Positions 4,759-64,000 are shown, counted from the first letter of the stretch. The stretch: 64,000 nucleotides of DNA from Bacteroidota bacterium (GCA_016717725.1 JADKFA010000001.1:67219-131218); one strand, 5' to 3'. A program made the numbers and translations. The notes: a model not told the origin generated them from the letters alone.

Positions 4759-6056
4759 AATCGCTATTCACTGGTTTCGTCGCGACCTTCGTCTAGAAGA
4801 CAATGCTGCTTTACATCACAGTTTAAAAAGTGGATTCAAAGTACAATGTGTTTTTATTTTTGACAAAGATATTTTGGATTCATTAGAAGATAAGAAAGAT
4901 CTTCGACTCCAATTCATACATGATCAAATTACTTACTTAAACCAACAACTTTTATCGCATGGTGCTAGTTTGGATGTGCGATATGGCACCCCTATAAAAA
5001 TCTGGAAAGAAATACTAAAGGATTATAATACAGCTGCAGTTTATACAAATCACGATTACGAACCTTACGCAAAAATTCGAGACAAAGAAATAGAAAATCT
5101 ATTAGTAAAAAATAACATTTCCTTTCATACTTACAAGGATCAAGTGCTTTTTGAAAAAGATGATATTCTAAAAAAAGATGGGCAACCGTATACCATCTAC
5201 ACTCCCTTCAGTAAAAAATGGATGGATAATTTAAATGAAGAAGGTGTTCCTCATTTCGAAACTACAAATCTTCTTAGCAATCTAAATCAAAATAATTCTT
5301 CGACTATACCTTCATTGAAATCGATGGGATTTGAAAAAAGTGACATTGCTTTTCCCAGCAAAGAAATCAACAATACGATAATTCAGCAATACCACAATAC
5401 TCGTGACTTTCCAAGTGTATTAGGCACATCTCACCTTAGCGTACACCTTAGATTTGGAACGGTGAGTATTCGACAAATAATTAAAGAAGCACAAAAAATG
5501 AGTCCTACTTGGTTGAACGAACTTTGCTGGCGGGAATTTTATATGATGATCATTTGGCATTTTCCACATGTTGCTCAACAGCGCGTTTAAACCTGCATAC
5601 GATTATATTGAATGGAGAAATAGCGAAGATGAATTCGAGGCATGGTGTGAAGGACGAACGGGCTATCCCATTGTTGATGCAGGCATGCGCGAACTCAATG
5701 AAACTGGATTCATGCACAATCGAGTACGCATGATTACTGCCAGCTTTCTCACTAAACATTTATTAATTGATTGGCGGTGGGGGGAAGCGTACTTCGCTTC
5801 CAAACTTCTCGACTTCGACTTGAGTGCAAACAATGGCGGATGGCAATGGGCAGCAGGGAGCGGTTGCGATGCAGCACCCTATTTTAGAATTTTTAATCCA
5901 TACCTCCAAACACAACGATTCGATCCCAAATTTAAATACATTCGAAAATGGGTTCCAGAATTTGAAGACTTCGGCTATCCATCACCGATAGTGGAGCATA
6001 CCTTTGCAAGAGATCGATGTTTGCAAGTGTATAAGAAAGGTCTTGCAAAAAAATAG
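4748..6056 (+). pseudogene. phrB: deoxyribodipyrimidine photolyase / cryptochrome family, interrupted by one frameshift near 5570-5590
   Basis: The N-terminal part (IHWFRRDLRLEDNAAL) is in frame 2. The C-terminal FAD part (GYPIVDAGMRELNETGFMHNRVRMITASFL..WQWAAG) is in frame 0. The junction lies between WHFPHV and AFKPAYDY. Confidence 0.85.
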
Positions 6057-9227: not shown

Positions 9228-10418
9228 CTACACTACCTCTGAATTAATTTTTGATACATTCCATCGTAGAAGAAAAAATGAGATCATTGCAACAACTGCA
9301 GTGATTGAAAAAACCAGTTGGGGTCCTCCCATTGACCACATCCATCCCGTCCACGCTCCTGCGAAAAGTATCCCCAAACTATTTACACTCGTATAAAAAC
9401 CGATAGCTTGTCCACGTTCATGCGTTGGTACTAGGGTAGAAATAACAGCCTTAGCAACGGATTCTAAACACGACATGGATAACGCATATACTGCAAAGAG
9501 AAATATAAAGGCAATCAAAGAATTCATCCAGCCCATGCCTGCATAAGTAATCACAAAAAGAAAAATTCCTGTTAACAGTATATTTATTTTTCCCCATTTG
9601 TCGGCCAGCACGCCGATGGGCATTGAAAGAATTGCATAGAGTAAATTATATAAAATATATACTGCGATCATCGTCGTATCTGAGAATCCAGCTTCCTTTA
9701 ATGCCATCAACAAAAACACATCTGGACTATTTACCAAAGCGAACAACATCAAGGGGAATAAAAATTTCCGATAGCTAATATGACTTGCTTTCCAATAGTT
9801 AAAATAAGAAAAAAATCCGACTTGAGATTTCGTCTTTACTTCTATGCTAACTTTTTTCTCTTTCAAACGAAAGGTTAATAACAAACTAATTCCAGCAGGA
9901 ATAAATGCCATGGTGAATAAAGTTGAATAGTCGCCGGGTGTCCACCAAAGCCATAGCAACGCCACGGAAGGACCAATGGCAGCACCGAGCGTATCGAGTC
10001 CACGATGAAAACCAAATACGGCGGCACGAGTATCAGGACTTGACTCCAATGCGAGTAAAGAATCGCGTGGAGCTGTCCGAATTCCTTTTCCTAAACGGTC
10101 GGTAATTCTTCCAGAAAAAATACGGAATAAATCAGGGGAGCCCATCATCAACAATTTTCCCAAAGCAGAAAGGCCGTAACCCCATCTTACAAAAACCGAG
10201 CGTCGCTGCAACACATCTGATTGATGTCCGAAATACCCTTTAGACACACCTGCAATTACATTGGCAATACCTTCTAACAATCCAAGGGCAAGCATTGAAT
10301 AACCAGCTTCTTTTAAATACACGGGAAGAATTGGATACAACAACTCACTAGAAATATCGGCGAAGAGACTAATCCATCCTAGCAGCCAAACATTACGAGA
10401 GAATTTTGATTTAAACAT
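9228..10418 (-). CDS. MFS transporter
   Basis: 396 aa with ~12 predicted TM segments and a D-R-x-G-K-G-like loop (TDRLGKGIR). Confidence 0.75.
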   Translation of the reverse strand: MFKSKFSRNVWLLGWISLFADISSELLYPILPVYLKEAGYSMLALGLLEGIANVIAGVSKGYFGHQSDVLQRRSVFVRWGYGLSALGKLLMMGSPDLFRIFSGRITDRLGKGIRTAPRDSLLALESSPDTRAAVFGFHRGLDTLGAAIGPSVALLWLWWTPGDYSTLFTMAFIPAGISLLLTFRLKEKKVSIEVKTKSQVGFFSYFNYWKASHISYRKFLFPLMLFALVNSPDVFLLMALKEAGFSDTTMIAVYILYNLLYAILSMPIGVLADKWGKINILLTGIFLFVITYAGMGWMNSLIAFIFLFAVYALSMSCLESVAKAVISTLVPTHERGQAIGFYTSVNSLGILFAGAWTGWMWSMGGPQLVFSITAVVAMISFFLLRWNVSKINSEVV

Positions 10419-10965
10419 GATTCATCGAATCAAACATTTCTCGAGTGAGTATCCAACGTTTTACAAGCTGCTCGTAGCAAATCCAACCAGGGACAGTAGT
10501 GTATTCTTTAATAAAGTCGAACCCCAATTTTTCGATCGTTCTATTTGATCCATGATTGAGTGCATAGGGTTCACACAAAATTCGTTTCAACTCAAACTTA
10601 TCAAAATAAAAAGGGATAGACATTCGCAACCATTCCAATCCAAATCCTTTTCTTCTGTATTCATTCGACCATATATGCAAGTGGACAAAAGCTTCTTCGC
10701 CAAATTGTATGGGACCAATACTTGAATGTCCAACAGGTTTCCCATCATACAACCAAATCATCGCAAAAGATTTCTTCTCTGAAAAAGGAGTTGTTAATTG
10801 TGTTTCAATCATTGCAGTAAAATCTTCTCGTGAAGGCAACTTCTTCAAATCGACACCCATATTTATCAAAAACTCATCTGGAGAATTCAACCAGTAGTTT
10901 ACCAAAGGAGAAATATCCTCTTTTGTAATTTCCCGAACAGACAGCTTGCTCTTTGACATGATCAC
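10411..10965 (-). CDS. GNAT family N-acetyltransferase
   Basis: RRKGFG acetyl-CoA loop and a RimJ/L-like size. Confidence 0.7.
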   Translation of the reverse strand: MIMSKSKLSVREITKEDISPLVNYWLNSPDEFLINMGVDLKKLPSREDFTAMIETQLTTPFSEKKSFAMIWLYDGKPVGHSSIGPIQFGEEAFVHLHIWSNEYRRKGFGLEWLRMSIPFYFDKFELKRILCEPYALNHGSNRTIEKLGFDFIKEYTTVPGWICYEQLVKRWILTREMFDSMNHV

Positions 10966-43764: not shown

Positions 43765-44301
43765 ATGGATGTTCAAGACCCCCGCTACCCTATCGGCAAA
43801 TATTTGCCTCAGGCAGACTTTACAAAAGAAGTGATGGAAAACTGGCTAGCCATCATTGCTGCACTGCCGACACAATTAGACTTGGCTATTAAAAATCTGA
43901 ATGATGATCAGCTCGATACTCCCTATCGTGATGGTGGCTGGACTGTTCGACAGGTGGTACATCATGTTGCCGATAGTCATATGAACGCCTATATTCGATT
44001 TAAACTCGCATTAACAGAAGAGAATCCCACTATTAAACCTTATCAAGAAGAACGTTGGGCAGAACTCGCCGATTCAAAATATGGAACTCTGGAAGATTCA
44101 CTTATGTTGTTAAAAGTACTACATAGTAAATGGAGTCATGTAATGCAAAATATGTCGGACGAAGAATGGGATCGTACTTTTACGCACCCACAGTACAATC
44201 GTGTATCCACCTTGAAATTCAATCTCGGACTCTACGCTTGGCATAGTCAACATCACACGGCGCATATTACGCATTTGCGGAGTCGTAAAGGATGGATTTA
44301 G
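43765..44301 (+). CDS. YfiT/DinB-family metal-dependent (bacillithiol-transferase-like) protein
   Basis: RYPIGKY start and the His triad VVHHVADSH .. HSQHHTAHI. Confidence 0.7.
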   Translation: MDVQDPRYPIGKYLPQADFTKEVMENWLAIIAALPTQLDLAIKNLNDDQLDTPYRDGGWTVRQVVHHVADSHMNAYIRFKLALTEENPTIKPYQEERWAELADSKYGTLEDSLMLLKVLHSKWSHVMQNMSDEEWDRTFTHPQYNRVSTLKFNLGLYAWHSQHHTAHITHLRSRKGWI

Positions 44302-44553: not shown

Positions 44554-44689
44554 GGATTTATAATACAAACGAAAATTTATTTGTTGATTTAAGATTCTAT
44601 TACCTTCCAAATCTTCGATTACAATTATACCTTTTTATTTCACCCTTTCAGGGTTTCTATCTGATGATTCTTGACTTTTCTATAATAAT

Positions 44690-45900
44690 TTCATCCCTAC
44701 GGGATTATAGAGCGATTCAATTAATTTCATTCTTCTGGATTAAGAGCAGGTTTAATTAATTTCATCCTTCGGGATTATAGAGCGATTCAATTAATTTCAT
44801 TCTTCTGGATTAAGAGCAGGTTTAATTAATTTCATCCTTCGGGATTATAGAGTGATTCAATTAATTTCATCCTTCGGGATTATAGAGCGATGCAATTAAT
44901 TTCATTCTTCTGGATTAAGAGCAGGTTTAATTAATTTCATCCTTCGGGATTATAGAGCGATTCAATTAATTTCATTCTTCTGGATTAAGAGCAGGTTTAA
45001 TTAATTTCATCCTTCGGGATTATAGAGTGATTCAATTAATTTCATTCTTCTGGATTAAGAGCAGGTTTAATTAATTTCATCCTTCGGGATTATAGAGTGA
45101 TTCAATTAATTTCATCCTTCTGGATTAAGAGCAGGTTTAATTAATTTCATCCTGCGGGATTATAGAGTGATTCAATTAATTTCATTCTTCGGGATTATAG
45201 AGCGATTCAATTAATTTCATCCTTCTGGATTAAAAGCAGGTTTAATTAATTTCATCCTTCGGGATTAAAAGCAGGTTTAATTAATTTCATCCTTCGGGAT
45301 TAAAAGCAGGTTTAATTAATTTCATCCTTCGGGATTAAAAGCAGGTTTAATTAATTTCATCCTTCGGGATTATAGAGCGATTCAATTAATTTCATCCTTC
45401 GGGATTAAGAACAGGTTCAATTAATTTCATCCTTCGGGATTATAGATTGATTCAATTAATTTCATTCTTCGGGATTATAGAGCGATTCAATTAATTTCAT
45501 CCTTCGGGATTAAAAGCAGGTTTAATTAATTTCATCCTTCGGGATTATAGAGTGATTCAATTAATTTCATTCTTCGGGATTAAAAGCAGGTTTAATTAAT
45601 TTCATCCTTCGGGATTAAAAGCAGGTTTAATTAATTTCATCCTTCGGGATTAAAAGCAGGTTTAATTAATTTCATCCTACGGGATTATAGAGCGATTCAA
45701 TTAATTTCATCCTTCGGGATTAAAAGCAGGTTTAATTAATTTCATCCTTCGGGATAATAGAGCGATTCAATTAATTTCATTCTTCGGGATTAAAGCAGGT
45801 TTAATTAATTTCATCCTTCGGGATTATAGAGCGATTCAATTAATTTCATCCTTCGGGATTAAAAGCAGGTTTAATTAATTTCATTACTTAGGGATTATTC
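44690..45900. repeat. Non-coding tandem array of about 35 copies of a 35-bp unit, in two interleaved subtypes
   Basis: The unit core is AATTAATTTCAT(C/T)CTTC(G/T)GGATTA. The tail is either TAGAG(C/T)GATTC or A(A/G)AGCAGGTTT. The period is 35 (checked at 44761/44796/44831). Stops occur in all frames. Confidence 0.9.
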
Positions 45901-45913
45901 ATGCGAACATTTC

Positions 45914-46969
45914 TTACTCATACCGCAATCGATGAATCAAATAGATTAACGCGGCGAAGAGGAAGAAAGCAAATGCCTGGTGCAGCACACCCAACACAAT
46001 GGGAACACTGAATAAAAGTGTAACTATTCCCAATAAAACTTGACCAAATATGCCCTCCATCAAAATATATACAGCTCGTTTTTGCGAACGATGTAAGGTG
46101 GGCATTTTGAAAATTTTTATCATGAAAACAATTGTAAATATCGTGAGTATGTAGGCTAATCCACGATGTATAAATTGCATACTTGCTAAATTATTTATTA
46201 AAGAAGAAATTCCATCTTTTTGAAATGAATAGCCTATCGCTTCAGGCACCCAATCGTCGTACATTTTAGGCCATGTATTGTAAATCAGTCCTGCTTTAGA
46301 ACCCGCGACAAAAGCACCATAGATAATTTGCAAAGTGAGTAACCCCAATAATATTTTAGCTGCCTTTCTGAACTTCGTTACTTCTCTACCGTTACCCGCC
46401 TTCCGATCGAAGAGCTGAGTAAGTGCTACCCAAAAGATATATCCGAACGTAATGAATGCAAAGGTGAGATGGATCGCCAAGCGGATATGACTTACACGTA
46501 CATTTTGAGTAAGTCCGCTCGACACCATATACCATCCTAAAAAGCCTTGCAAGCCTCCCAGCACGAACATAAATAATAATTTAGGTAACAACTCCACCGT
46601 AATCGCTTTCCTCCACAAAAAGTAAATCAACCCAAACAAAAACACAACGCCAATGAGTCGACCAAACAATCGATGTATAAACTCCCAGAAATAAATAAAT
46701 TTAAAATCCGCTAATTCGAAATGTGAATTTTGCTGTTGATATTGCGGAATCTGCTTGTACTTTTCAAATGCCTCTAGCCATTGCGCTTCGTTTAATGGAG
46801 GAATACTTCCGCTAATCACTTTCCATTCGGTGATTGATAATCCAGAACCCGTGAGTCGAGTGATCCCTCCAACTACCACCATGCCGAATACTAAAAAACA
46901 TCCGGTGAAAAGCCACAGCAACACTTGACTTTTATACTTTTCTGAATGAATACTGCTTAATACTTCCAC
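45914..46969 (-). CDS. ctaA: heme A synthase (COX15/CtaA family)
   Basis: 8 TM segments with conserved His in TM helices (HR..G, H pairs), 351 aa. Confidence 0.8.
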   Translation of the reverse strand: MEVLSSIHSEKYKSQVLLWLFTGCFLVFGMVVVGGITRLTGSGLSITEWKVISGSIPPLNEAQWLEAFEKYKQIPQYQQQNSHFELADFKFIYFWEFIHRLFGRLIGVVFLFGLIYFLWRKAITVELLPKLLFMFVLGGLQGFLGWYMVSSGLTQNVRVSHIRLAIHLTFAFITFGYIFWVALTQLFDRKAGNGREVTKFRKAAKILLGLLTLQIIYGAFVAGSKAGLIYNTWPKMYDDWVPEAIGYSFQKDGISSLINNLASMQFIHRGLAYILTIFTIVFMIKIFKMPTLHRSQKRAVYILMEGIFGQVLLGIVTLLFSVPIVLGVLHQAFAFFLFAALIYLIHRLRYE

Positions 46970-51140: not shown

Positions 51141-52180
51141 TCAAAGACCCTCTTGCTCGAAATAATTCACAATAAGTTGCGGAAAACCAAACGTGGAAAG
51201 GTCGCTTAATTTCACTCTTAAATACCCATATTTAGAAGGTAAACATCTTGCAATTTTTACTGTCCAAAAGGTTGCGTGCAGCTCTTGATGCGATAAGATA
51301 TGCTTCCTCTTAAAGGGGGATTTGTTCAATACAGGTTGATGGAATTTTCGATTTCAGATGGAATTTCAGGTGGAAAATCAGTGGTTCAAAAGCTCTACCA
51401 AAGGAAGTTCGTATAAGCCCTGCCAAATATCCTTTTCATTTCTCCTTTTGATGTACGTGGAGATTCCATCGGTAACCAGAAAATAATGAAAATACCTTTT
51501 TCTAGAGGGTTGTTTCTTCGCTTTCACTGGATAATCCGACACCTTATTATATATTAATGCATGGCAAGCCATAGCGAAAGGGCAATCATCGCAGTTGGGG
51601 AGATGGGTTTACAAACAAGCGACCCTATTTCCATCATCGCCTGATTATGTTCCGCTGCGTGCCGACCATCCATCAACTCAAGAGCAAGCTCATTAAATGC
51701 TTTTTTACCTTGAGATGAATCGATGGGTACATCCATCCCAAAGAATCGTGATAAAAAACGGTAAACATTTCCATCCACAACGGGGTGAGGTAAATCGAAG
51801 GCAAAGCTGGCTATGGCGGATGCGGTATAATCACCAATTCCCTTTATTGATCGCAGCTTTTCAAAGTCGGAAGGAAACTCTCCATTAAAATCCCTTAGCA
51901 CTTGTTTAGCAGCAGCATGAAGATTTCGGGCTCTGGAATAATAACCCAATCCTTGCCAAAGCCGCAAAATTTGGTCTTCAGACGCCATGGCAAGGCTTTC
52001 TATGGATGGGAAATTTTCAAGAAATTTTTCATAGTACGGAAGTCCTTGATTTACACGTGTTTGCTGAAGAATAATTTCCGAAAGCCATATATTATAGGCT
52101 TCTTTTGTGCTTCTCCAAGGCAATTTTCGACCGTTTTTTCGGTACCATTGCCTTAAATTCTTAGAAAATTCCTGATCCAT
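51141..52180 (-). pseudogene. mutY: A/G-specific adenine glycosylase MutY, with about 3 frameshifts
   Basis: HhH-GPD N-terminus. The Fe-S motif CKP..NCDDCPF..C is only readable after a shift at a cccc run (~51575). The NUDIX-like C-terminus (FKRKHILSHQ) is reached after two more shifts at 51335-51380. Confidence 0.85.
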
Positions 52181-52280
52181 ATTAAATAATTAGGGCAAAA
52201 ATAGGAAGTAATATTTTGTATTTCAGCAAGAAAGCATATCTTTGCAGCCCCTTAAAAGGAATTTATAATCAATAGTAAAG

Positions 52281-52586
52281 ATGACAAAAGCAGAATTAGT
52301 AAACGAGATCTCCACAAAGACTGGGATCGAAAAGGTAGCCGTTCAGCAAACCGTAGAATCCATGATGAAAGTGATTCGCAACTCGCTGATCAATAACGAA
52401 AACGTTTATTTACGTGGATTCGGTAGTTTTATCGTTAAGAAGCGTGCAAAGAAAACGGGACGTATCATCACCAAAAACGCTACTATCATTATTCCGGAAC
52501 ATTATATCCCAGCTTTCAAGCCAGCGAAAACTTTCACTGAGCGTGTGAAATCTGCACATAAGATTAAAACGTCAACTGCTGAATAA
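52281..52586 (+). CDS. HU family DNA-binding protein
   Basis: MTKAELV start and the arm motif RGFGSF..KKRA...GR... Confidence 0.85.
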   Translation: MTKAELVNEISTKTGIEKVAVQQTVESMMKVIRNSLINNENVYLRGFGSFIVKKRAKKTGRIITKNATIIIPEHYIPAFKPAKTFTERVKSAHKIKTSTAE

Positions 52587-52592
52587 TCCTGA

Positions 52593-53429
52593 ATGAAAAG
52601 TGCACAACTGAGGAACCTCCTCATTGCCGGCACAATTCTACTTTCAGTTGCACTTTATTTTGCTCCTTCTCAAGTAAACAAGAAGGGAGCCGAACCCAAG
52701 GCCGCCACAGAAAGTACAGAGGACGAATTCAACCCGGAAGCCTTATTGCGATCGGCTAAAGCTTCGCTCGACACCAACGCTCTTCAACAGCTTGAGTTCA
52801 TCGAGAAAGCATCTGCCCAAGCAAATAATCAGGATACTGCCTTATTAGATAGTATTGGCAAAATCTGGGACAGAAACGGAATACCGGCTGCTTCCGCTAT
52901 CTGGTTTGAGCGAAAAGCACAAATAGTAAAGAGTGAGTCATCATATCTTGATGCCGCTTACCGCTATTTTGATTCTTTTCGAATGGCCAACGACAGCTCG
53001 ATTCAGTCGTTATTAGTTGGAAAAGCCATCGCCAACTATAAAAAGGTGTTAGATATAAACCCGAATAACCTGAATGCAAAAACAGACCTTGGTGCCTGTT
53101 ATGCAGATGGAACTTCGGAACCCATGAAAGGGATTATGTTATTGCGTGAAGTGATAGCCGCAGACCCCAATCATGAAATGGCCCAGTATAATTTGGGAAT
53201 GCTATCGGTGAAATCGGGGCAACTTGATAAAGCGATAGAGCGATTCCAAAAAGTATTGGAAATAAATCCGGAAAGAAGCGAAATGAACTTTTACCTCGGT
53301 CAGGTTCATCTTCAAAAAGGAGATACAGCAGCGGCAATTCAGTCGTACGAGACATTCATCAAGAATGCAAAGTATGATGTTTCCGATGTGATTAAAATGG
53401 TTCAAGCACTCAGGAAGAAAGCATCCTGA
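52593..53429 (+). CDS. tetratricopeptide repeat protein (N-terminal membrane anchor)
   Basis: Several 34-aa TPR-like units (A..Y..VL.I.P.N). Follows HU by 6 nt. Confidence 0.7.
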   Translation: MKSAQLRNLLIAGTILLSVALYFAPSQVNKKGAEPKAATESTEDEFNPEALLRSAKASLDTNALQQLEFIEKASAQANNQDTALLDSIGKIWDRNGIPAASAIWFERKAQIVKSESSYLDAAYRYFDSFRMANDSSIQSLLVGKAIANYKKVLDINPNNLNAKTDLGACYADGTSEPMKGIMLLREVIAADPNHEMAQYNLGMLSVKSGQLDKAIERFQKVLEINPERSEMNFYLGQVHLQKGDTAAAIQSYETFIKNAKYDVSDVIKMVQALRKKAS

Positions 53430-53466
53430 AAAAGAAAATAGTTAAAAACATTTAAAAAATTAAGTT

Positions 53467-53559
53467 ATGCCATCAGGTAAAAAGCGCAAACGTCATAAAA
53501 TGGCGACCCACAAACGTAAGAAGCGTCTAAGAAAAAATCGTCATAAGAAGAAGAAATAA
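53467..53559 (+). CDS. 30-aa highly basic protein, mS38 (AURKAIP1/COX24)-like / bS22-like small ribosomal protein candidate
   Basis: MPSGKKRKRHKMATHKRKKRLRKNRHKKKK. It is not in the ORF track because it is too short. This sequence type is conserved in Bacteroidota, from my recollection. Confidence 0.6.
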   Translation: MPSGKKRKRHKMATHKRKKRLRKNRHKKKK

Positions 53560-53577
53560 GCCATTTTAGGCTGATAA

Positions 53578-53615
53578 GTAGCCATTCTGCATAAAATTAT
53601 ACGGAATGGCTACTC
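53578..53615 (+). terminator. Hairpin after the mini-ORF
   Basis: agtagccattc-N16-gaatggctact has an 11-bp stem with a weak T tract (catattt). Confidence 0.4.
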
Positions 53616-53669
53616 ATATTTGCTATTTTTTATTCAGGTAGTCGGTGGACTATGCTGTTTTAAGGAATT

Positions 53670-55271
53670 TTGAAATACTCCTTAAGCAAAATAATTAGGC
53701 TTCAAGATTTGAACAGCGAACTCATTATTGATTCGTCGACTTCCGAGGTGCAAATAGCCCTTGTTGAAGACAAGCAGCTCGTAGAGTTAAATACAGAAAA
53801 GAAAGAAAAAAGCTTTTCGGTAGGTGACGTCTACTTGGGCCGCGTAAAGAAACTTATGCCTTCACTCAACGCCGCTTTTGTGGATATCGGTTATGAGAAA
53901 GATGCTTTCCTCCACTATCTCGATTTAGGTACCCAGGTACAATCCCTCATCAAGTACATGAAGAATACACAAGCCGGCAAACAAGCCGATGCCTTGCTGA
54001 ATAACTTCGAACTGGAGGCCGACATACACAAAGCCGGAAAAATTGGACAGGTAGTAACCACCAACCTCAACATCATGGTGCAGGTGGCCAAGGAACCCAT
54101 CAGCAGCAAAGGTCCGCGCATCACCGCCGAACTTTCCTTTGCTGGGCGATTTGTGGTTCTCGTTCCCTTTTCAGATGTTGTTTCCGTATCACAAAAAATT
54201 AAGAGCAGCGCCGAGAGACTCAGATTAAAACGTTTAGCGACGAGTATCAAGCCCCGCAACTTCGGAATCATTGTTCGCACCGTTGCTGAAGGAAAAAAAG
54301 TTGCCGACCTCGACAGAGATGTTCAAGATTTAACTTCGAAATGGACTGCGCTGCATGAACAATTAAAGTCGGCCACACCACCCGCAAAACTCTTGGGTGA
54401 AATTGATCGCGCTTCCACCATCTTAAGAGATTTATTGAATGCTAATTTCAATGCCATTCATGTCAATGATGTTCGTGTTGCAGAAGAAATAAAAACGTAT
54501 TTGAGAGGCATTGCTCCCGATCAAGTCGACATTGTAAAGTTGTACAAAGGCAAATTGCCCATTTTTGAAAACTTTGGCATCGACAAACAAATCAAATCGC
54601 TTTTTGGAAAAACGGTGAACATGGCGGGGGGCTCCTACCTCATCATTGAGCATACCGAAGCCATGCATGTGATTGATGTGAATAGTGGCGGCCGAAATAA
54701 AGGCGCATCCGACTCACAAGAAAACAATGCACTTCAAACAAACTTAATGGCGGCAAAAGAAATTGCACGTCAATTTAGGATGCGCGATATGGGTGGAATC
54801 ATCGTCATTGATTTCATCGACATGAAAAATACGGTGAATCGCAAAACGCTTTTCGACACCTTGCAAGCGGAGATGAAGCAAGATCGTGCGCGACACACCA
54901 TTTTACCTCCAACCAAATTTGGTCTCGTACAAATCACCCGTGAGCGTGTACGACCTGTTACCGATATCATCACGGCGGAGAAATGTCCGGCTTGTGATGG
55001 AACTGGAGAAATTAAAGCATCCCTCCTATTAATTGACGACATTGAAAATAACTTACGTTACCTCTGCGAAGAGCAAAACGAAAAAGGGTTAACCTTACAA
55101 ACGCATCCTTTCGTAGCTGCCTTTTTAAATAAAGATTTTTGGAAATTCAAATCCTTCCAATGGAAGTGGCGCAAGAAATATAAAAGCTGGGTGAAGATTG
55201 AACCCATCTCCAGCTACCATATTATGGAGTTTCATTTTTTGAATAAGCAAGGGGAAGAGATTAAGCTTTAA
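53670..55271 (+). CDS. rng: Rne/Rng family ribonuclease (RNase G/E)
   Basis: S1 domain (GDVYLGRVKKLMPSLNAAFVDIG), a catalytic core (VIDVNSG, IIVIDFIDM) and a Zn-link CPACDGTG. The true start is possibly the TTG at 53709. Confidence 0.85.
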   Translation: MKYSLSKIIRLQDLNSELIIDSSTSEVQIALVEDKQLVELNTEKKEKSFSVGDVYLGRVKKLMPSLNAAFVDIGYEKDAFLHYLDLGTQVQSLIKYMKNTQAGKQADALLNNFELEADIHKAGKIGQVVTTNLNIMVQVAKEPISSKGPRITAELSFAGRFVVLVPFSDVVSVSQKIKSSAERLRLKRLATSIKPRNFGIIVRTVAEGKKVADLDRDVQDLTSKWTALHEQLKSATPPAKLLGEIDRASTILRDLLNANFNAIHVNDVRVAEEIKTYLRGIAPDQVDIVKLYKGKLPIFENFGIDKQIKSLFGKTVNMAGGSYLIIEHTEAMHVIDVNSGGRNKGASDSQENNALQTNLMAAKEIARQFRMRDMGGIIVIDFIDMKNTVNRKTLFDTLQAEMKQDRARHTILPPTKFGLVQITRERVRPVTDIITAEKCPACDGTGEIKASLLLIDDIENNLRYLCEEQNEKGLTLQTHPFVAAFLNKDFWKFKSFQWKWRKKYKSWVKIEPISSYHIMEFHFLNKQGEEIKL

Positions 55272-55554
55272 ATCACCTTTTTCTCTTGGAAGCTTAGGCT
55301 TTCTACAATACCTATTTCTTGATATTTAATTGCTATTCGTCGAAAGTCGGGGAGCGAGTACGTATTTGTACTTAGTGGAAATTTTTTGGTGGGGATTCGA
55401 GGGTATATGGTTGTTTAAAAAGTATATTTGGGAAAGGGAAATGGCGCAAAGCCCATTCTATAGGAAGTGCTTTATAAAATAAATTTCTAGTAATAATACG
55501 TTAGCGGTCAAACTATGACAACAGTGCAAAACCAAACAACAGTAAAAAAAACGC

Positions 55555-56833
55555 ATGATGACAGAACATATTTCATTTTTATTTGGCTCTGGATTTTCAG
55601 CACCTGAAAACATTCCGACAGTTGGTGCAATCAACAAGAAGCTACGACAACTTAAAAAGGACGAATTTTATTTGGGTTCTGACCAAAGAGCATTTTTTTA
55701 TCAAACTGAATGGAGAGACCCAAATGGATGGATGACCAGTTCAACTATTGACAGATTGTTTGCACAAGAATTTATTGCCTTTTACTGCAAAGAAGTTTTA
55801 CATGACGACCTTGATGCTTTTAACTACGAAGTTTTCTATGATTATTTTAGTGAATTTCTACGATATCAAAAACACAAAGACGCAATAGGAAAGTTTTGCG
55901 AAACTTTTCGGACAACCTATATTAAGGACAGCGTTTGGGCTTCTGACGACTACAATTTTGTTTGGAGATTTAGTAAAATATTCAATCAACGTTTCTGGAC
56001 TGCTGATGGTTCCGAGATACTATGAAGATGTAAGCTATGGAAACTATCCGACTTACGACCCATTAGTTGGTTTGATGAGAGAATTACTTAAAACAAAAAT
56101 AGTAGATGTGCATACTCTCAATCATGACATATTTTTTGACTCTCTTGCAAGTAAGCATTCGGATTTGTGACAACACTTCTGTGATGGTTTTACAGAATAT
56201 GGCTCACCATATTTTGGAGAAGTTTCGTTTGACCATAAGTCCGAACTTTGGACAGTTCATAAATCGTATAAAGTAAGGTTGAGATATTTCAACAACGATT
56301 ACAGCAAGAACTTACGACTATACAAACTTCATGGCAGTATTGATAATTTTATATTGCTTAAAGCAACTTCTCCTGGCGCTACTCAATATTCAAGGGACAA
56401 CTCAGTTCGAGTAAAAAGGGACTTTGCAGTTGGAGAGTTTCTCATGGAGCGACTTGATGAAACGCTTCAAAAATATGTTTACGACAGACCATTTTCTGAA
56501 AATTATCCAGACTTCTTAACTGGAACAACAGAGAAAATCAGATTATACAACGACCCATTTTACGACAAACTCTTTTCAATATTCAAAAGCAACTTGCTTC
56601 ACTCTAATCAATTGTTTGTTATTGGTTACGGCTTTCAAGACAAAGGAATCAACGAGTTTTTAGAAAATCACTATTTGATTTTTAATAAGCCTATGATTGT
56701 AATTGACATCAAGAAACCCGACAGCCCACTTATAGAAAAATATAACGACCAAATTACTTTCATAGATAAAGGTGCCATAGGAGTTTCTTATAAAGAATAC
56801 ATGGAACTTGTAAAACTACCCCTAAAATCATAA
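55555..56833 (+). pseudogene. SIR2-like (SIR2_2 family) protein with one frameshift (~55960-56025) and one in-frame TGA (56168-56170)
   Basis: FLFGSGFS, HTLNHD, YKLHGS and FVIGYGFQD motifs in order across three ORF fragments. Confidence 0.7.
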
Positions 56834-57089
56834 CTGCATACTTGACACGACATATCCTCGGACAGAAAAAAGCACGAAACGATAACAGCACATTTGCAAT
56901 AGGGGGAGTTTCACGAGGTTACAGAAAGTTTGTATCTTCGAATAAATATTTGTGGTAAAAATCCCGCCCATCGTAAATATGCAAAACGTAATAAGCAAGC
57001 CTATCAGTCACACAACAGTAAAGCTTTAATCCGCTTCGTAGCAAAATCTTTTTCCAGTTTATGTTTACCAGTTTGTTTGCAAGTATTAC

Positions 57090-57110
57090 CTTTGACAAAT
57101 TAAGTCAAAG
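57090..57110. promoter_or_regulatory. Perfect inverted repeat ctttgac-aaattaa-gtcaaag, 16 nt upstream of the HTH gene (candidate operator)
   Basis: Read directly, at an operator-like position relative to the XRE-type regulator. Confidence 0.4.
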
Positions 57111-57125
57111 CAAATTCATTCAAAG

Positions 57126-57429
57126 ATGGACAGTTTAGGAAGCACGATAAAACAACTCAGAGAGAAACAAGAACTGCCTTTACGGACAGTAGCTGCTTTT
57201 CTTGATATTGACCAAGCAGTTCTCAGCAAAATAGAGCACGGACATCGTAAGGCAACCCGTGAACAAGTGCAACAACTTGCAAAGTATTTTAAAGCAGACG
57301 AAGATGAATTGATTGTTGCATGGTTAAGCGACAAGTTAGCTCACAGGTAAACAAGACGAAGATTTATCAAAGCAAGCATTGAAAGCAGCTGAAAAAAAGG
57401 TTGACTTTTTAAAAAAGAAAACGAAATGA
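57126..57429 (+). pseudogene. XRE-family HTH regulator (controller-like), with one frameshift near 57345
   Basis: HTH is LPLRTVAAFLDIDQAVLSKIEHG. The tail GKQDEDLSKQALKAAEKKVDFLKKKTK reads in another frame. Its stop overlaps the mod ATG (ATGA). Confidence 0.65.
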
Positions 57430-59367
57430 CAAGCGAATCATTAAACATAACAAAAGACAATTTGGACAAACTCCAAACTCTTTTCCCCGACATTTTTTCA
57501 GAGGGCAAAATTGATATGGAAAAGTTCAAAGCAACTTTTTCTGACGACATCAATTTTGCAAATGAAAGATATGTGTTGAACTGGGCTGGTAAATCCGATG
57601 CATTCAAAGTGTTGCAGATTCCGACAACCGCTACGCTGAGACCACAACCCGAACAATCCATCTACTTTGACACAACCGAAAATGTTTTTATTGAAGGAGA
57701 GAATTTAGAAGTGCTGAAAGTGTTGCAGAAAAGTTACTACAACAAAGTAAAGTGCATTATTATTGACCCGCCATACAATACAGGAAACGACAGCTTTATT
57801 TATCCAGACAGTTTCAAAGAGAGTAAAGCCGAATATGAAAAACGTATTGGCGACAAAGACGAAGAAGGATATTTAATGAAAGAAGGTTTGTTCCGAAAGA
57901 ACAGCAAAGACAGCGGACACTACCACAGCAATTGGTTAAGCATGATGTATCCCCGTTTGTTCTTGGCAAAAAATTTATTGAGAGATGAAGGAGTTATTTT
58001 CGTTCACATAGATGATAATGAAGTTCACAACCTTCGGTTATTGATGAATGAAATTTTCGGCGAGGAGAATTTTGTAGCTTCCTTTTTATGGGAAAAAAGG
58101 ACAAATAGGGAAAATCGCAAAGTAGTTTCTATAAGGCACGACTATATATTATGCTATTCAAATTGCAATGGATGTTGGAAGACCTATCAACCAAAGCTCC
58201 AATGACTGAAAAAGCATTGTCAAATTATAAGAATCCTGACAATGACCATCGAGGTTTATGGAAATCAGACCCTGCAACAGCGCAAGCAGGACACGGGACT
58301 ACCTCTCAATTTTATGAGCTGATTGCACCAAATGGAAAAGTTCATCAACTCGAAAGTGGAAGATGTTGGCTTTATACTAAAGCAGTTATGAATGAAGCTA
58401 TAAAAGATAATAGAATCTGGTTTGGTAAGGATGGGAATGGAGTGCCGCGTGTTAAAACCTATTTGGATGCAAAGGAAAGAGGATTAACACCTGAATCAAT
58501 ATTATTTGCTGAAGATGTTGGAACCACAGAATCTGCTAAAAATCAATTAAAAGAGTTGTTTAATGGTATAGCTGTTTTGAGACTCTAAATCAGTTGGGTT
58601 AATAAATAAGCTTTTTGCAGATGGGTGCAAATGAAGGTATTGTTTTAGACTTCTTTGCAGGTTCAGGAAGTACTGCCCACGCAGTAATGGATTTAAACGC
58701 ATCAGATGGCGGTAATAGAAAATACATTTGCGTTCAACTCCCTGAATTATGCGATGCAAGCAGTGAAGCTTACAAAGCAGGATATAAATCTATTGTCGAA
58801 ATAAGTAAAGAACGATTACGTAGAGCAAACAAGAAAATTCAAGAAGAAATCAACTCAGAAATCAATAAGATAGAAGCCGAAATCGTAAAACTACAAAGCG
58901 AACTCCCTACAGATGAAAACAAAGCAGAAATTGAAAGTCTGAAAAATACTATAGTTCAGTTAAAAAATCAAGATTTAGGTTTCAAAGTTTTTAAACTTTC
59001 ACCTTCTAACTTTAAAGTATGGCGAGGGGATGAAATCACTGAAGAAAATTTGGTAACTCAATTGGATGCTTTCAACAATCCGGTAAAAGCGGAAAGCAAA
59101 AATGAAAACATGCTTTACGAGCTATTGATTAAAGTAGGTTACTTAATTGCCGACAAAGTTGAGGCGAAAGAAGAATACTTTTCAATAAAAGACGGTGAAA
59201 TGATTATTGCATTGGAAGAAATGAATCCGCAAATCATTGACACCATCATAAAAGCACAACCAAAAAAGGTAATAACCCTTGACAATCTTTTCACAGGCAA
59301 CGACCAACTGAAAACAAATACAGTGTTGCAAATGAAAGATGCAGGCATTGATTTTAAAACGATTTAA
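57426..59367 (+). pseudogene. mod: Type III R-M DNA methyltransferase (Mod, beta-class N6-adenine), with about 4 frameshifts
   Basis: Motif IV IIIDPPYNTG precedes motif I VLDFFAGSGSTAHAV. The breaks are at ~58165 and three within 58565-58625. Confidence 0.85.
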
Positions 59368-59369
59368 TT

Positions 59370-60514
59370 ATGGAACAGAAAGATATTAATTACGAGTTAG
59401 ACGAGAATAAAATTGAGGAATCAGACGAAAGTCATGTTCCAATTATAGTTCCTTTTTGACCCAAACCTTATTCGTATAAGGCGTGACCCGTTTACGCTTG
59501 GAGAATTGATTGACAAGATTGAACACAATGAAGTCAACTTCTTTACGCTGTTTCAGCGAAAAGAAAATCTTTGGGATGAAACAAAGCAGAGCAGATTGAT
59601 TGAATCGGTTTTGCTGAAACTTTACCTGCATTTTATTTTGATGAGCTAATGAGGGAAGATGAAAAGACAAAAGAGAAAACCTATTATTGGCAAGTAATTG
59701 ACGGATTGCAGAGATGCAGTGTGTTGAAAAATTATGCAGTAAAAAAAACAATGGTACTAGATGACTTGGAATTTCTGACACAGTTTAATGGGAAAAACTA
59801 TGAATCACTTCCGAGAGAACTAAAAAGGAGAATTACTCAAACTCCAATTACTGTTTATGTTGTAGAGAAAGGTACTCCCGAAGAAGTAAAGTTCAACATC
59901 TTCAAACGAATCAATACAGGTGGTTTGATTTTAACGCCACAGGAAATCCGTCATGCTTTAAATCAAGGTGTGGCTTCTGAATTTGTTGCCACACTTGCAG
60001 ACCATGAAGATTTCAAGGAAGCAACATCATGGATAATTAAGACTGACAGAATGGAGGATAGGGATTTCGTTACAAGGTTTGTTTCATTTTACATTACCCC
60101 CTACACAGAATATCAACCCGACTTAGATACTTTCATGACGAAAGGAATGGGATTAATAAAAACTCTTTCAGATAAAAAAGAGAAGAAATGAAAACTAATT
60201 TTATCAAAGCCATGAATACAGCCATTACAATTTTTGGTGATGATGCTTTTAGAAAAAGAAGAGCAAGAGAAGACAGAAGAAAGCCAATCAACAAAGCATT
60301 GTTTGAAACACTGTCAGTAGCTTTCAGCAAACTAAGTGATGAAGAAACAGAAACTTTGATTGAGAACAAAGAATATTTTAAAGACAAATTTATTGAATTG
60401 CATAACGAACTGATTTTTTACAACTCGCTTGCATCTGGAACTGGATTGAAGCCAAGTGTTACAAAACGATTCAGCGAAATAAACAGAATAACAAACGAAA
60501 CAATTTTAAATTAA
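59370..60514 (+). pseudogene. DUF262 (ParB/GmrSD N-terminal-like) domain protein, with at least 3 frameshifts
   Basis: FQRKENLWDETKQSRLIESVLL, VIDGLQRCSVL and FKRINTGGLILTPQEIRHAL. It starts 2 nt after the mod stop. No DUF1524/HNH tail was seen. Confidence 0.8.
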
Positions 60515-60515
60515 G

Positions 60516-61712
60516 ATGATACGCAAACTGACAATAAAAAATTTCAAGATTCACTCCAACACAGAGTTGGATTTAAGCAACCTGAATATTTTGACAGGAA
60601 TAAACGGGGTTGGAAAATCTTCGGTTTTTCAATCACTTTTGCTGCTAAGGCAATCATACGAAGCCAATGTTCTTTCAAGTGGTTTGCAATTGAACAAACC
60701 ATATTGCGACATCGGCTTTATCAGCGATGCAATTTATCAGGGAGGAGAAACTGATGAAATTGAATTTGCAATCGACACAAATGAAAACGAAAATCAGTCA
60801 TGGAAATTCAAACCGCTTGATAAAAATCCAAATAAAAACTTTATTCCAGTTTCAGGGTCAACAGAAAGCAATATTGTTTCTGATTCAAAAGATTCATTAA
60901 TCCCAAGTGTAGGCAAAACACAAAGTAATTTAGGAAGACTAAGTGTTTTTAATAATAATTTTCAATACCTGAGTGCAGCAAGATTATCACCAAGAGAAAC
61001 TTATCCGCTAGATTCAAATGCAGTAGAAGTGAAACGGCAACTTTCAGTTGAAAAGGGACAAGGAGAATTAGTTGTTCACTTTCTTTATCACTACGGAAAA
61101 GAAAAAAGAGAAAATAAAATTTGACTTACTTAGACATGAAGCTGAGGCATTAGATGATTTGCTTTCACAAACTAGTGCATGGGAGAGAGAAGTAAGTCCA
61201 GGAGTAAATGTTGTTCCTACTCCAAGCGGGAAGGCATTTACATTGAAATATACTTTCAACAAGAAGAATGACTTTACACCGACAGAGCCATTCAGTGCAG
61301 AGAATGTTGGATTTGGTTTGAGCTACGCTTTACCAATTATTGTGGCAGCACTATCATCAAGTGAAAACAGTTTAATACTTGTAGAGAATCCCGAAGCACA
61401 TCTTCACCCAAGAGGACAATCTCAATTAGCAAAACTTCTTGCATTAGCAGCACAAAGCGGAGTACAGATTATCATTGAAACACACAGCGAACATATCATT
61501 AACGGGTGTTAGTTGCTTGCAAGAAATTTGAAAAAGGAGAAAAAGGAATCAATAAAGATTTGGTAAGAATTTATCACTTTAAACGAGACGAAGAAAAGCA
61601 TTGCGCCATTGCAGACCGAATAACAATTCTTGCAGATGGTAAAGTTGATAGACAACCAGAAGATTTTTTTGAACAGACAGAAAAAGACCTAAACTATTTA
61701 CTCGGATTCTGA
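60516..61712 (+). pseudogene. AAA_15/ABC-like ATPase with a DUF3696-type C-terminus, with 2 frameshifts
   Basis: Walker A GINGVGKSS, Walker B-like LILVENPEAHLHP, ETHSEHII, and the tail IYHF..DG..FF. It starts 1 nt after the DUF262 stop. Confidence 0.8.
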
Positions 61713-61713
61713 C

Positions 61714-62284
61714 ATGAAGATAAAAGCATACATACATTTTCCCGAAGATGAAATCGCTTTTAATCATCTTGCTGGAAATCCAGATTCTTACAATGAAATT
61801 GTAAAAGGAACTATACGCTATCAAGTACAAACTGAAGAAGAATTCGCAATACGAACTCTCTTACGATTGGAATAATGTTCAGCGTTTTTTGGCTGTAGCA
61901 GAGGGAATAATTCCCGACAAATATTTAGGAGGAATTCGTAGTCAAATTTTGCATATTGTAGGAACGACAAGCAGAAATGTTAGTCAACCGAGATTAAGAA
62001 TACCTCACTTTACTTACACAACTTGGAGTATTGATTTAAAGGTTGCACATTCTCCTTTTGTGGTTTCAGAATCAGCAGAAGATACTTTGAATGATTCTGC
62101 AACAGAAAAAACTATTTGTCTTTGTCTTGGCGATTCTATCAATGCACAAAGAGAAGAATTACACATCATTAAAGATGCAATTCATGACAGCACCCTTCCA
62201 AAACTAATTACAGTTAATGCCACAAGCAGCGATGTGGGTTTTGTAAAATGGGTTACCACTCTTCCAGTTGGAAATTTACATTAA
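61714..62284 (+). pseudogene. hypothetical ~190-aa protein, with 1 frameshift (~61805-61875)
   Basis: The ATG lies 1 nt after the ATPase stop. MKIKAYIHFPEDE.. continues as ..YDWNNVQRFLAVAEGIIPDKYLGG.. in another frame. No family recognised. Confidence 0.45.
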
Positions 62285-62299
62285 GAAACAATAACGACT

Positions 62300-62506
62300 T
62301 TGAACCGCTTGAAAAGTTTTGGGGAAAGAACCAAGGAAAGAATATTCAGACACAAAGCAACAGGTAATCATTGGTATTTTGACTTCAACCATAAGGATAA
62401 CAAAATTCATTATGAAGTATTTGATGGCACAGGAAATACTCATTTGGGTGAAGCTGATGAAAATGGAACATTAAAAGCAGAAACTCAAAGCAATAAGAAA
62501 AAATAA
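62300..62506 (+). CDS. hypothetical 68-aa protein (apparent TTG start)
   Basis: Co-directional and wedged between the unknown ORF and res. Contains HWYFDF..HYEVFDGTGNTHLGE. Confidence 0.3.
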   Translation: MNRLKSFGERTKERIFRHKATGNHWYFDFNHKDNKIHYEVFDGTGNTHLGEADENGTLKAETQSNKKK

Positions 62507-62519
62507 GCGATTTACTATA

Positions 62520-64000
62520 ATGAAACTCCAATTTGACGGCAACCAATCTTATCAATGGGATGCAGTAAAAGCATCACCGACATTTTTGAAGGGCAACCTT
62601 TAAGCAGTGGAGATTTTGAATTTACGCAATCGTCCGCAGGTGTATTGCTAACTGAAAACGGTTTTGGAAACAACCTTACTTTGTCGGCAGAACAGATTTT
62701 GCTGAATGTGAAAAACATTCAGCAACGAAATGAAATTCAAAAATGCCGTTGAAGAATTGCAGGGAATGAATTTTTCGGTGGAGATGGAAACAGGCACAGG
62801 AAAACTTATGTGTATCTGAAAAGTATATATGAACTTAATAAACTTTACGGCTTCAAAAAGTTTGTAATCGTAGTTCCATCAGTTGCAATTCGTGAAGGTG
62901 TTATAAAATCTACAAATCACACACGACCATTTTCAAAGTCTGTATGATAAAACTTCTATCAATTTTGATGTTTACGACAGTAAGAAAGTTTCCAACCTAA
63001 GAGGATTTTCTTCAGGAAATTTCATTCAGGTTTTAGTAATCAATATTGATTCATTTGCGAAAGATGAAAATATCATCAACAAACCAAACGACAAACTCAC
63101 AGGTAAAAGACCGATTGAGTTTATTCAAAGCACAAAACCATTTGTAATTGTTGACGAACCGCAGAATATGGAAACCGAAATAAGAAAGAAAGCAATTGAG
63201 AATCTCAATCCACTTTGTATCTTACGTTATTCGGCTACACACACCAACTTTTATAACCTCATGTATTCACTCAATCCAGTGAAGGCTTATGATTTGGGAT
63301 TGGTAAAGCAGATTGAAGTTGATAGTGTAATCAGTGAAAACGATTTCAACGACAGTTTCATACAGTTGGAAAGTGTGAACAGAACAGGAAACAACATCAC
63401 TGCAAAAATTAAGATTGATACATCTTCTACAACAGGCATCAAACGAAAATCAGTTACTGCAAACAGAAATAAATTAGACCTTTTTATATTGAGCAATAAG
63501 AATGAAAAGTATGAAGGGTTAAAGATTTATGAAATTGATTTCGGCAATCAGCAAATAGAACTTACCAACGGAATTGTTTTGAAAGTTGGAGAATCAAAGG
63601 GAGGTATGAATGATGAAGTGATGCGTTTCATGATTCAGAAAACCGTTGAAGAACATTTGAAGAAAGAAAGAGAATACAAAGCCAAAGGAATAAAAGTGTT
63701 GACGTTATTTTTCATTGACAAAGTGAAAAACTATCGTGAGTATGATGAAATCGGAAATGCAATTGCAGGGAAGTTTGCTACATGGTTTGAAGAAATTTAT
63801 CAAAATGAAATAGCAAAACCAAACAACAAAAATCTTATCTCTAATTCAGTTACAAAGATTCACAACGGATATTTTTCGCAAGACAACAAAGGTAGAGTGA
63901 AAGATACAGGAGGGAGAAACCCAAGCAGATGATGATACTTACAAACTCATCATGCAGGAAAAAGAAAAGTTGCTTGACATTAACACTCCGCTTCGTTTTA
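62520..64000 (+). pseudogene. res: Type III restriction endonuclease Res subunit (SF2 helicase-nuclease), N-terminal ~490 codons with at least 5 frameshifts; continues beyond the window
   Basis: MKLQFDGNQSYQ start, Walker A METGTGKTYVY (after a shift), motif II FVIVDEPQNM, LRYSATH, and a later YKLIMQEKEKLL in another frame. Confidence 0.85.

Follow-up and report, generated by a model that had tools for sequence, protein, structure and literature searches.

A predicted Menshen cassette nested between mod and res in a type III restriction-modification operon

Introduction

The window analysed here is a 64,000-nucleotide (nt) stretch of DNA from a Bacteroidota bacterium (GCA_016717725.1, JADKFA010000001.1:67219-131218), the end of which carries mod and res, both belonging to a type III restriction-modification (R-M) system, with the three genes of a Menshen (NsnABC) anti-phage system between them. 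The locus probably represents two separate anti-phage systems in one operon, with Menshen as the occupant of a mod-res slot whose cargo varies. A seven-gene puzzle with two "unknown" proteins, as a first-pass annotation of the same DNA had left it, is resolved into two named systems, and the idea of a defence gene nested in a defence gene, which that annotation had also raised, is borne out by the position of nsnABC.

Gene content of the locus

Genes were located by listing open reading frames (ORFs) and by three-frame translation of 55.5-64 kb, followed by Pfam and PADLOC searches. No gene of the block is intact, each falling into two to five pieces; PADLOC searches of the fragments and, after the in silico frameshift repair proposed in the first-pass annotation, of the repaired proteins identified the products as Menshen and type III Mod and Res. 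The mod gene (57426-59367, + strand) encodes 647 amino acids (aa) when repaired, with a DPPY motif followed by FxGxG. It matches Pfam N6_N4_Mtase in three pieces across 57426-59367, and its fragments match the PADLOC MTase_III model PDLC03634 (1.7e-110 and 2.3e-53). The res gene (62520-64000, + strand) is cut by the end of the window, which retains the first ~495 of 878 codons; this fragment matches the PADLOC REase_III model PDLC03647 (2.3e-104). Res has the superfamily 2 (SF2) motifs GTGKT and DEPQ, and ResIII, DEAD, and RE_endonuc domains are present in the intact ortholog of 878 aa. By its domain content, the outer system is a type III R-M system, predicted to combine an N6_N4_Mtase-family Mod with a Res composed of an SF2 ATPase and a PD-(D/E)XK nuclease. 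In type III families, Mod methylates a single strand of an asymmetric site, and Mod-Res cuts unmodified DNA in an ATP-dependent manner.

The mod and res genes are not adjacent in the window, but are separated by a gap of ~3.15 kb that contains three co-directional genes. The first-pass coordinates of mod, of the start of res, and of the co-directional block that parts them agree with these assignments, as do the two spacings that it gave for the start of the block. The mod stop (59365-59367) is followed after 2 nt by the ATG of the DUF262 gene, nsnA (59370), and the nsnA stop (60512-60514) is followed after 1 nt by the ATG of the ATPase gene, nsnB (60516). The nsnB stop lies at 61710-61712 and the nsnC ATG at 61714. 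In the intact or repaired operon, which begins with a helix-turn-helix (HTH) gene, the HTH-mod-nsnA-nsnB-nsnC-res junctions measure -4, +2, +1, +1, and -1 nt.

The nsnA gene (59370-60514, + strand, 382 aa when repaired) encodes a DUF262/ParB-like protein with a DGLQR motif, which places it with the ParB/DUF262 component of Menshen; it matches Pfam GmrSD_N (4.8e-11). Its fragments match the PADLOC NsnA model PDLC03877 with values of 4.8e-65 and 1.1e-28, and the repaired protein covers positions 19-383 of the 385 model positions (4.4e-123). The nsnB gene (60516-61712, + strand, 399 aa when repaired) encodes an ABC ATPase with a DUF3696 tail, the composition expected of NsnB, and matches Pfam AAA_15, AAA_21, and DUF3696 (1e-08). 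All three ATPase fragments are matched by the PADLOC NsnB model PDLC03878, and the repaired protein covers model positions 1-343 of 345 (5.6e-106). NsnB has GINGVGKS as its Walker A motif and "EN" (LILVENPEAHLH) at the Walker B position, in agreement with the replacement of the Walker B DE dyad by "EN" in NsnB that is described by Li et al. (2025, PMC12065111). PARIS, Gabija, Septu, and OLD were considered as identities for the ATPase and rejected, with the NsnB score far above those of the AriA, HEC, GajA, PtuA, and Old models. An NCBIfam search returned no specific family for any cassette protein.

The nsnC gene (61714-62520, + strand, 268 aa when repaired) ends in a TAA codon (62518-62520) that overlaps the res ATG by 1 nt. 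The first-pass annotation had described a four-gene cassette, in which nsnA and nsnB were followed by an unknown ORF of ~190 aa (61714-62284) and an unknown 68-aa ORF (62300-62506), with res starting 13 nt later. The 68-aa ORF, however, corresponds to positions 210-265 of the 269-position PADLOC NsnC model PDLC03889 (5e-14), and over its whole length the stitched product of 61714-62520 can be aligned with 23 intact homologs of 264-286 aa, each a single protein. The two ORFs are therefore pieces of one nsnC, the four-gene cassette is rejected in favour of three genes, and the 13-nt gap gives way to the 1-nt overlap. The start of the ~190-aa ORF, at an ATG 1 nt past the nsnB stop, was correctly placed, although the ORF is a fragment and not a separate gene. 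What looks like an in-frame stop separating these pieces was likewise rejected as a nonsense codon, being the product of a -1 change at 62270 and a +1 change at 62325. The repaired NsnC matches PDLC03889 at 6.1e-13, with only the C-terminal half covered. Homologs of nsnC follow nsnA-nsnB in every context examined.

An AlphaFold model of NsnC, built with the 23-sequence alignment, reached a mean predicted local distance difference test (pLDDT) score of 56.8, and was confident only at residues ~200-268, with residues 92-191 below 50. For the C-terminal ~70 residues, Foldseek ranked the RNase domain of colicin E3 first (target TM-score 0.58, E = 0.015), a weak match of a low-confidence model; the CdiA-CT rRNase domain was also among the top matches and was also weak. 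These matches are compatible with an RNase effector and may be taken as a tentative hint. A PDB profile search with the NsnC alignment gave nothing meaningful (best E-value 0.31), and the YafQ-like BECR fold of the archetype was not recovered among the Foldseek matches of the low-confidence model.

Menshen was validated, according to Li et al. (2025, PMC12065111), in Solibacillus silvestris StLB046 as a three-gene operon. In their account, NsnA is a DNA-binding sensor, NsnB is a predicted tetramer that holds NsnC through DUF3696, and NsnC combines an inactive-PIN domain with a toxin effector, usually an RNase. Judged by its predicted proteins, the inner system comprises all of Menshen, with an NsnA that lacks the optional N-terminal sensor domain. 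The first-pass annotation had tentatively named the pairing of DUF262 with an AAA_15/DUF3696 ATPase as that of Menshen, and the PADLOC matches to NsnA, NsnB, and NsnC agree.

Recurrence of the arrangement

A search for the same gene order, as suggested in the first-pass annotation, showed that the order recurs, with a single intact nsnC in place of the two unknown ORFs. Two contigs from separate Joint Genome Institute (JGI) samples, L001 and L004, were reached through the closest NsnC homolog and carry a near-identical, intact operon at the same chromosomal site. Their gene order is RNase E/G, a 426-aa SIR2-like protein, HTH (100 aa), Mod (647 aa), NsnA (382 aa), NsnB (399 aa), NsnC (268 aa), and Res (878 aa); in L001, the intact nsnC lies at 10001-10807. 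The six-gene block from HTH to res was also found in L005-7, with ~82% nucleotide identity, in a different neighbourhood and beside a phage-type integrase, in a Sphingobacteriales metagenome-assembled genome (MAG; L008), in a Chitinispirillia MAG (L018), and in the further metagenome contigs L091, L103, and L137. With the same six-gene order in independent contigs, chance is not an issue.

The centre of mod (58075-58964) gave no DNA-level alignment to L005, while the remainder of the L005-7 block is ~82-87% identical, and among close relatives Mod protein identity (58-65%) lags behind that of Res (88-91%). Both observations would fit an exchange of the target-recognition domain and differing specificities. 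A comparison of L091 with L001, which share the R-M context, gave identities of 89% for NsnA, 78% for NsnB, and only 35% for NsnC, a local example of the NsnC replacement, or polymorphism, described by Li et al. (2025).

Menshen also occurs on its own. Stand-alone NsnABC adjoins insertion sequence (IS) elements in L009 and Cas9 in L010 and L011, with NsnC 52-60% identical, and the stand-alone copies in L009 and L010 are about as close to the window copy as the embedded copies are. In L010, an AlbA_2 gene lies directly upstream of the stand-alone system. Among 80 NsnB loci from species-representative genomes, 78 had no homolog of this Mod or Res nearby, the exceptions being L018 and L025.

The mod-res junction as a variable cargo slot

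The content of the mod-res junction was surveyed in the best 80 of 455 matches (L091-L170, metagenome loci that encode Res orthologs of 61-91% identity). In the 62 loci in which mod was visible, mod and res were contiguous (3-11 nt apart) in 13, and the other 49, about four-fifths, carried 358-7535 nt between the two genes. The cargo ORFs are almost all on the + strand, co-directional with mod and res, and fall into at least 18 classes, toxin-antitoxin pairs among them.

The commonest cargo pair consists of a ~880-aa ABC/SMC-like ATPase followed by a 384-405-aa AlbA_2/HATPase_c_4 protein (L094-L097, L112, L123, L136, L156, L157, and L163). The ATPase has a weak PADLOC match to Ppl (1.8e-30) in its C-terminal part only, and the AlbA_2/HATPase_c_4 protein was found both alone and paired with this Ppl-like ATPase. 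Other loci carry HEC-01A/B (an ABC ATPase plus DUF4276), TIR-APAZ with a short prokaryotic Argonaute (pAgo), an AAA ATPase with an IetS protease, a Qat-like set of AlbA_2, KAP NTPase, QueC-like protein and TatD, PDC-M24A/B, or a 95-aa ORF, possibly an MNT partner, followed by a HepT-like protein. Proteins of the RhuM, Bro-N, and KilA-N types, a second methyltransferase with a HATPase_c_3 protein, a type IIG-like enzyme, and IS200 (L116 and L167) were found as well. A 677-aa protein without a Pfam or PADLOC match is the sole cargo in L101 (2409-4442), and is also present in L102 and L108; its position makes it a candidate for a new defence gene.

In a neighbour-joining tree built from Res, the cargo types are interspersed among closely related loci, with Menshen in at least four places, which indicates frequent cargo turnover. 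At 27 of 44 loci, and whatever the cargo, the stop codon of the last cargo gene and the res ATG share 1 or 4 nt, which points to selection for translational coupling into res. A search of viral contigs for Res relatives found none. In this Res family, as judged from gene content, Menshen is one of the cargoes that can replace one another in a variable slot, headed by a conserved HTH gene and palindrome (see below). Cargo may be swapped by recombination in the conserved 3′ end of mod and 5′ end of res.

Expression signals

The operon is headed by an XRE-type, controller-like HTH gene (57126-57429, + strand, 100 aa when repaired), which matches Pfam HTH_3 (1.1e-10) and, when repaired, the PADLOC models HTH_VI (2.2e-10) and Control_protein (3.2e-05). 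The overlap of its stop with the mod ATG (ATGA), reported in the first-pass annotation, holds once its single lesion, a +1 insertion at 57345, is removed, and is present in L001, where the gene is intact at 5405-5707. The perfect palindrome that had been noted in front of the gene was also found, as the inverted repeat CTTTGAC-AAATTAA-GTCAAAG (57090-57110, + strand), a putative operator 15 nt before the HTH start. The form TTTGAC-N7-GTCAAA is kept in the closest clade (L001, L005, and L091); the variant TTTGACAAGTCAAA is found in L008, L093, L094, L100, and L104, and TTTGACAAGTCTAAA in L137.

The box TACCTTTG (57087-57094, + strand) overlaps the palindrome and resembles the Bacteroidota -7 promoter element, whose consensus is TAnnTTTG; it may therefore be the -7 box of a promoter. 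Overlap of the palindrome with the probable promoter of the HTH gene suggests autoregulation. Junction spacing, together with the conserved palindrome, makes a single transcription unit for the block plausible. Scanned in full against Rfam at gathering thresholds, the window gave no matches.

Origin of the frameshifts

Alignment of the window to L001 separated an island (55451-64000) from its flank (51720-55450). In the island, identity to L001 is 99.64%, the differences being 31 substitutions and 22 indels of 1-4 nt, and every gene is broken. The flank is 92.7% identical, with 273 substitutions, 7 indels, none of which breaks a frame, and no broken ORFs. The difference in identity suggests a recent exchange of the island between diverged strains. 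The switch in identity falls between 55382 and 55476, just past the RNase E/G gene. Island substitutions comprise 10 synonymous and 17 non-synonymous changes and one W>stop at 56170, and those within genes of the flank comprise 192 synonymous and 42 non-synonymous changes. The remaining 55 kb of the window contains long intact ORFs (median 260 aa).

All but one of the 22 island indels lie inside 57090-64000, and 17 are single-base changes in the length of A, T, or G homopolymers, in both directions; homopolymer runs are about as dense in the island (8.9 per kb) as in the flank (9.2 per kb). Besides the HTH lesion, there are six indels in mod (58160, 58167, 58196, 58575, 58585, and 58612), three in nsnA (59453, 59620, of 4 nt, and 60174), two in nsnB (61102 and 61504), four in nsnC (61803, 62270, 62325, and 62498), and five in the window part of res (62567, 62739, 62801, 62905, and 63912). 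Two sister contigs from the same JGI project as L001, L002 and L003, have their own, differing patches of indels and mismatches, only in mod and res, with nsnABC 100% identical to L001, and their ends fall at 55083 and 55557 of the window, on the island boundary or no more than ~400 nt from it. Assembly quality at this locus is thus uneven across samples. L003 also has broken histidine-kinase genes.

In bacterial pseudogene decay, the ratio of indels to substitutions is usually far below ~1:1, and an unpolished long-read consensus gives ~1:1. A ratio near 1:1 at 0.36% divergence fits the latter and not the usual course of decay, and assembly error appears to be the likeliest cause of the indels. 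One possibility is that the island is near-identical among co-occurring strains whose backbones differ by ~7%, so that the shared stretch would be poorly polished; polishing would fail where reads map to several strains. An exact-sequence look-up of the TPR protein of the window found no cleaner contig of the same strain. If the indels are consensus errors, the native operon is most likely intact, as in L001 and L004.

The main alternative is genuine pseudogenisation, in which the whole island, comprising the SIR2-like gene, HTH, mod, nsnABC, and res, would be dead and the indels real mutations. It is the less likely explanation, but carries appreciable weight. The indels and the nonsense codon are found only in the island, with the 55 kb beside it intact, the 10 synonymous and 17 non-synonymous substitutions look neutral, and defence islands are frequently lost or inactivated. 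This explanation has to accommodate, however, 22 indels against 31 substitutions, a ratio far above that usual for bacterial pseudogenes, as well as the predominance of single-base homopolymer changes in both directions. Sister contigs of the same project, moreover, show different, patchy breaks in otherwise identical sequence and end near the island boundary. The frameshifts in the window should be taken as a warning, and are probably not biological.

Functional relationship between the two systems

In the preferred reading, one HTH-controlled transcript would express both R-M and Menshen, and Menshen would act independently as a second layer. Through the slot, both systems would be co-regulated by one promoter and one repressor, translation of the cargo would be coupled into res, and the block would move or be transferred as a whole. 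The proposed coupling is regulatory; a joint enzymatic mechanism is not part of the proposal.

Several observations weigh against this reading. The tight junctions and the lack of an internal promoter leave room for dependence of Menshen on the R-M system, in dosage or timing, and Li et al. (2025, PMC12065111) raise, as a speculation, the sensing of methylation status by DUF262. Scans of 55200-64000 for sigma-70 promoters (27, against 27.3 in shuffled sequence) and for intrinsic terminators (6, against 4.8 in shuffled sequence) were uninformative either way, so that the argument for a single transcript is left to gene spacing. The slot survey was restricted to the best 80 of 455 matches and included near-duplicate contigs. 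With regard to the frameshifts, the confinement of errors to the island is explained by the polishing hypothesis alone, and the neutral-looking substitutions of the island, with its one nonsense codon, are such as real decay would give.

The first-pass annotation had also proposed a composite system, with shared regulation or with a module coupled to methylation status. In a functionally coupled form of it, Menshen would be a second line wired to the R-M system, in the manner of PrrC and EcoprrI; NsnA might, for instance, read Mod methylation, or sense a phage anti-restriction block of Mod/Res, and then release NsnC. The tight junctions within the block (+2, +1, +1, and -1 nt), with no space for a separate promoter, are in keeping with such wiring, as are the conservation of the six-gene block, which travels as a unit, and the precedent of PrrC. 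BREX, type I, type III, or methylase genes accompany 27.9% of Menshen operons in the account of Li et al. (2025, PMC12065111), who suggest that DUF262 may be directed at genomes without modification. In the same account, however, the validated S. silvestris system is a three-gene operon, and close Menshen relatives stand alone in L009 and L010. Embedded NsnA occurs both with and without an N-terminal extension (469 and 382 aa), which indicates no embedded-specific adaptation. The same slot, furthermore, holds many unrelated systems or nothing; contiguous mod-res pairs and autonomous occurrence of the cassette had been named in advance as evidence against a composite, and the 13 contiguous pairs, the stand-alone Menshen systems, and the 18 or more cargo types make wiring of this kind unlikely. 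The expectation of an autonomous cassette was borne out only in part, since Menshen does stand alone elsewhere but the embedded copies have no room for a promoter of their own.

A broader form of coupling would make the mod-res junction a dedicated, translationally coupled docking slot and not a place of passive hitch-hiking; its interchangeable second-line systems would be functionally subordinated to R-M. They would include Menshen, SPARTA-like pAgo, Iet, Qat, HEC-01, PDC-M24, and the 677-aa protein of L101. Cargo might, for example, be expressed at a fixed ratio before Res or, by analogy with PrrC, be triggered by a phage block of Mod/Res. This proposal is about as doubtful as the composite system. 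If true, type III R-M operons would be a regulated chassis for layered immunity and an as yet unexploited place to look for new defence genes.

Least probable by far is a selfish insertion, in which a mobile element split mod from res and impaired res expression: IS200 is among the slot contents (L116 and L167) and L005-7 adjoin an integrase, but no transposase, integrase, repeats, or scars were found in the cassette or at its edges, a 2-nt gap and a 1-nt overlap form the junctions, cargo runs in the direction of res and is for the most part translationally coupled to it, and mod and res are intact across many cargo-bearing loci.

Neighbouring features

The first gene of the island is a SIR2-like gene (55555-56833, + strand), directly upstream of the R-M operon, whose L001 ortholog is intact (426 aa). 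The window copy carries a 2-nt deletion at 55991 and the W>stop at 56170. Its matches are Pfam SIR2_2 (1.5e-05, weak) and PADLOC Aga_SIR2 (3.3e-12), and the N-terminal 159 aa match nothing; the gene may be a separate, single-gene defence.

Elsewhere in the window, a non-coding tandem array (44686-45897) extends over 1.2 kb with a 35-nt period, ~34.6 copies, and 85% matches, two unit variants being intermixed. Each unit holds the mini-hairpin ATCC-TTCG-GGAT, with the stem or loop altered in some copies. The array is flanked by a 178-aa ORF (43765-44301, + strand) and a 351-aa predicted membrane protein (45914-46969, - strand). It was rejected as a CRISPR array, having no unique spacers, and had no match in the whole-window Rfam scan at gathering thresholds.

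Comparison with known systems

As in the type III systems EcoP1I and EcoP15I, mod precedes res on the same strand, Mod, with DPPY ahead of FxGxG, belongs to the N6_N4_Mtase family, and Res has the SF2 motifs GTGKT and DEPQ, with RE_endonuc at the C-terminus of the intact ortholog. The locus differs in the 3.15 kb of unrelated genes that separate mod from res, and in the XRE-type HTH gene over the mod start, with its palindromic putative operator. In the latter respect, it resembles R-M systems with C proteins, which share a small HTH_3 protein at the head of the operon and a GAC...GTC palindrome just upstream, and the PADLOC Control_protein match (3.2e-05) points the same way. However, the best PADLOC model here is HTH_VI, and the gene precedes mod and not the nuclease gene.

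The cassette shares with the S. silvestris Menshen system, as described by Li et al. (2025, PMC12065111), the order nsnA-nsnB-nsnC, a DUF262/ParB protein with DGLQR, "EN" and DUF3696 in NsnB, and an NsnC of ~268 aa, putatively of two domains. Its NsnA, without the optional N-terminal sensor domain, is like that of their type I Menshen. In contrast to the S. silvestris system, the cassette lies between mod and res, without room for a promoter of its own, and the window copy is frame-broken. The N-terminal half of its NsnC matches no model, in line with the polymorphism that they report.

Linkage of Menshen to type III R-M has itself been reported by Li et al. (2025, Nucleic Acids Research, PMC12065111), whose Figure 7E gives type III examples. 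The association is thus already published, and the novelty implied by the first-pass annotation was overrated. Within the literature searched, coverage of which was incomplete, no description of the type III mod-res junction as a variable cargo slot and no survey of defence nesting in type III R-M were found. Candidate new defence genes can be drawn from the slot, for instance the gene of the 677-aa cargo protein, and a Res family in which about four-fifths of the loci bear cargo provides a test bed for separating mere co-regulation or co-transfer from functional layering.

In the preprint of Payne et al. (2024), Hma, BREX, DISARM, and type I R-M were the hosts in which "guilt by embedding" was established. 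Embedding in that sense, with nsnABC on the same strand between mod and res, is found in the window and in L001, L005, L008, L018, L091, L103, and L137, and two families defined in that study, HEC-01 and PDC-M24, occur in the type III mod-res slot. Co-directional nested cargo is common to this locus, to PrrC in the type IC R-M system EcoprrI, to BrxU in BREX, and to the embedded systems of Payne et al. The locus, known here from genes alone, gives no sign of the functional guarding exerted by PrrC in EcoprrI. As in the survey of Payne et al., the cargo consists mostly of known or candidate defence genes, but the host here is a type III R-M system. With this locus, a known arrangement gains one more example, and the variable slot extends a known principle and does not introduce a new one.

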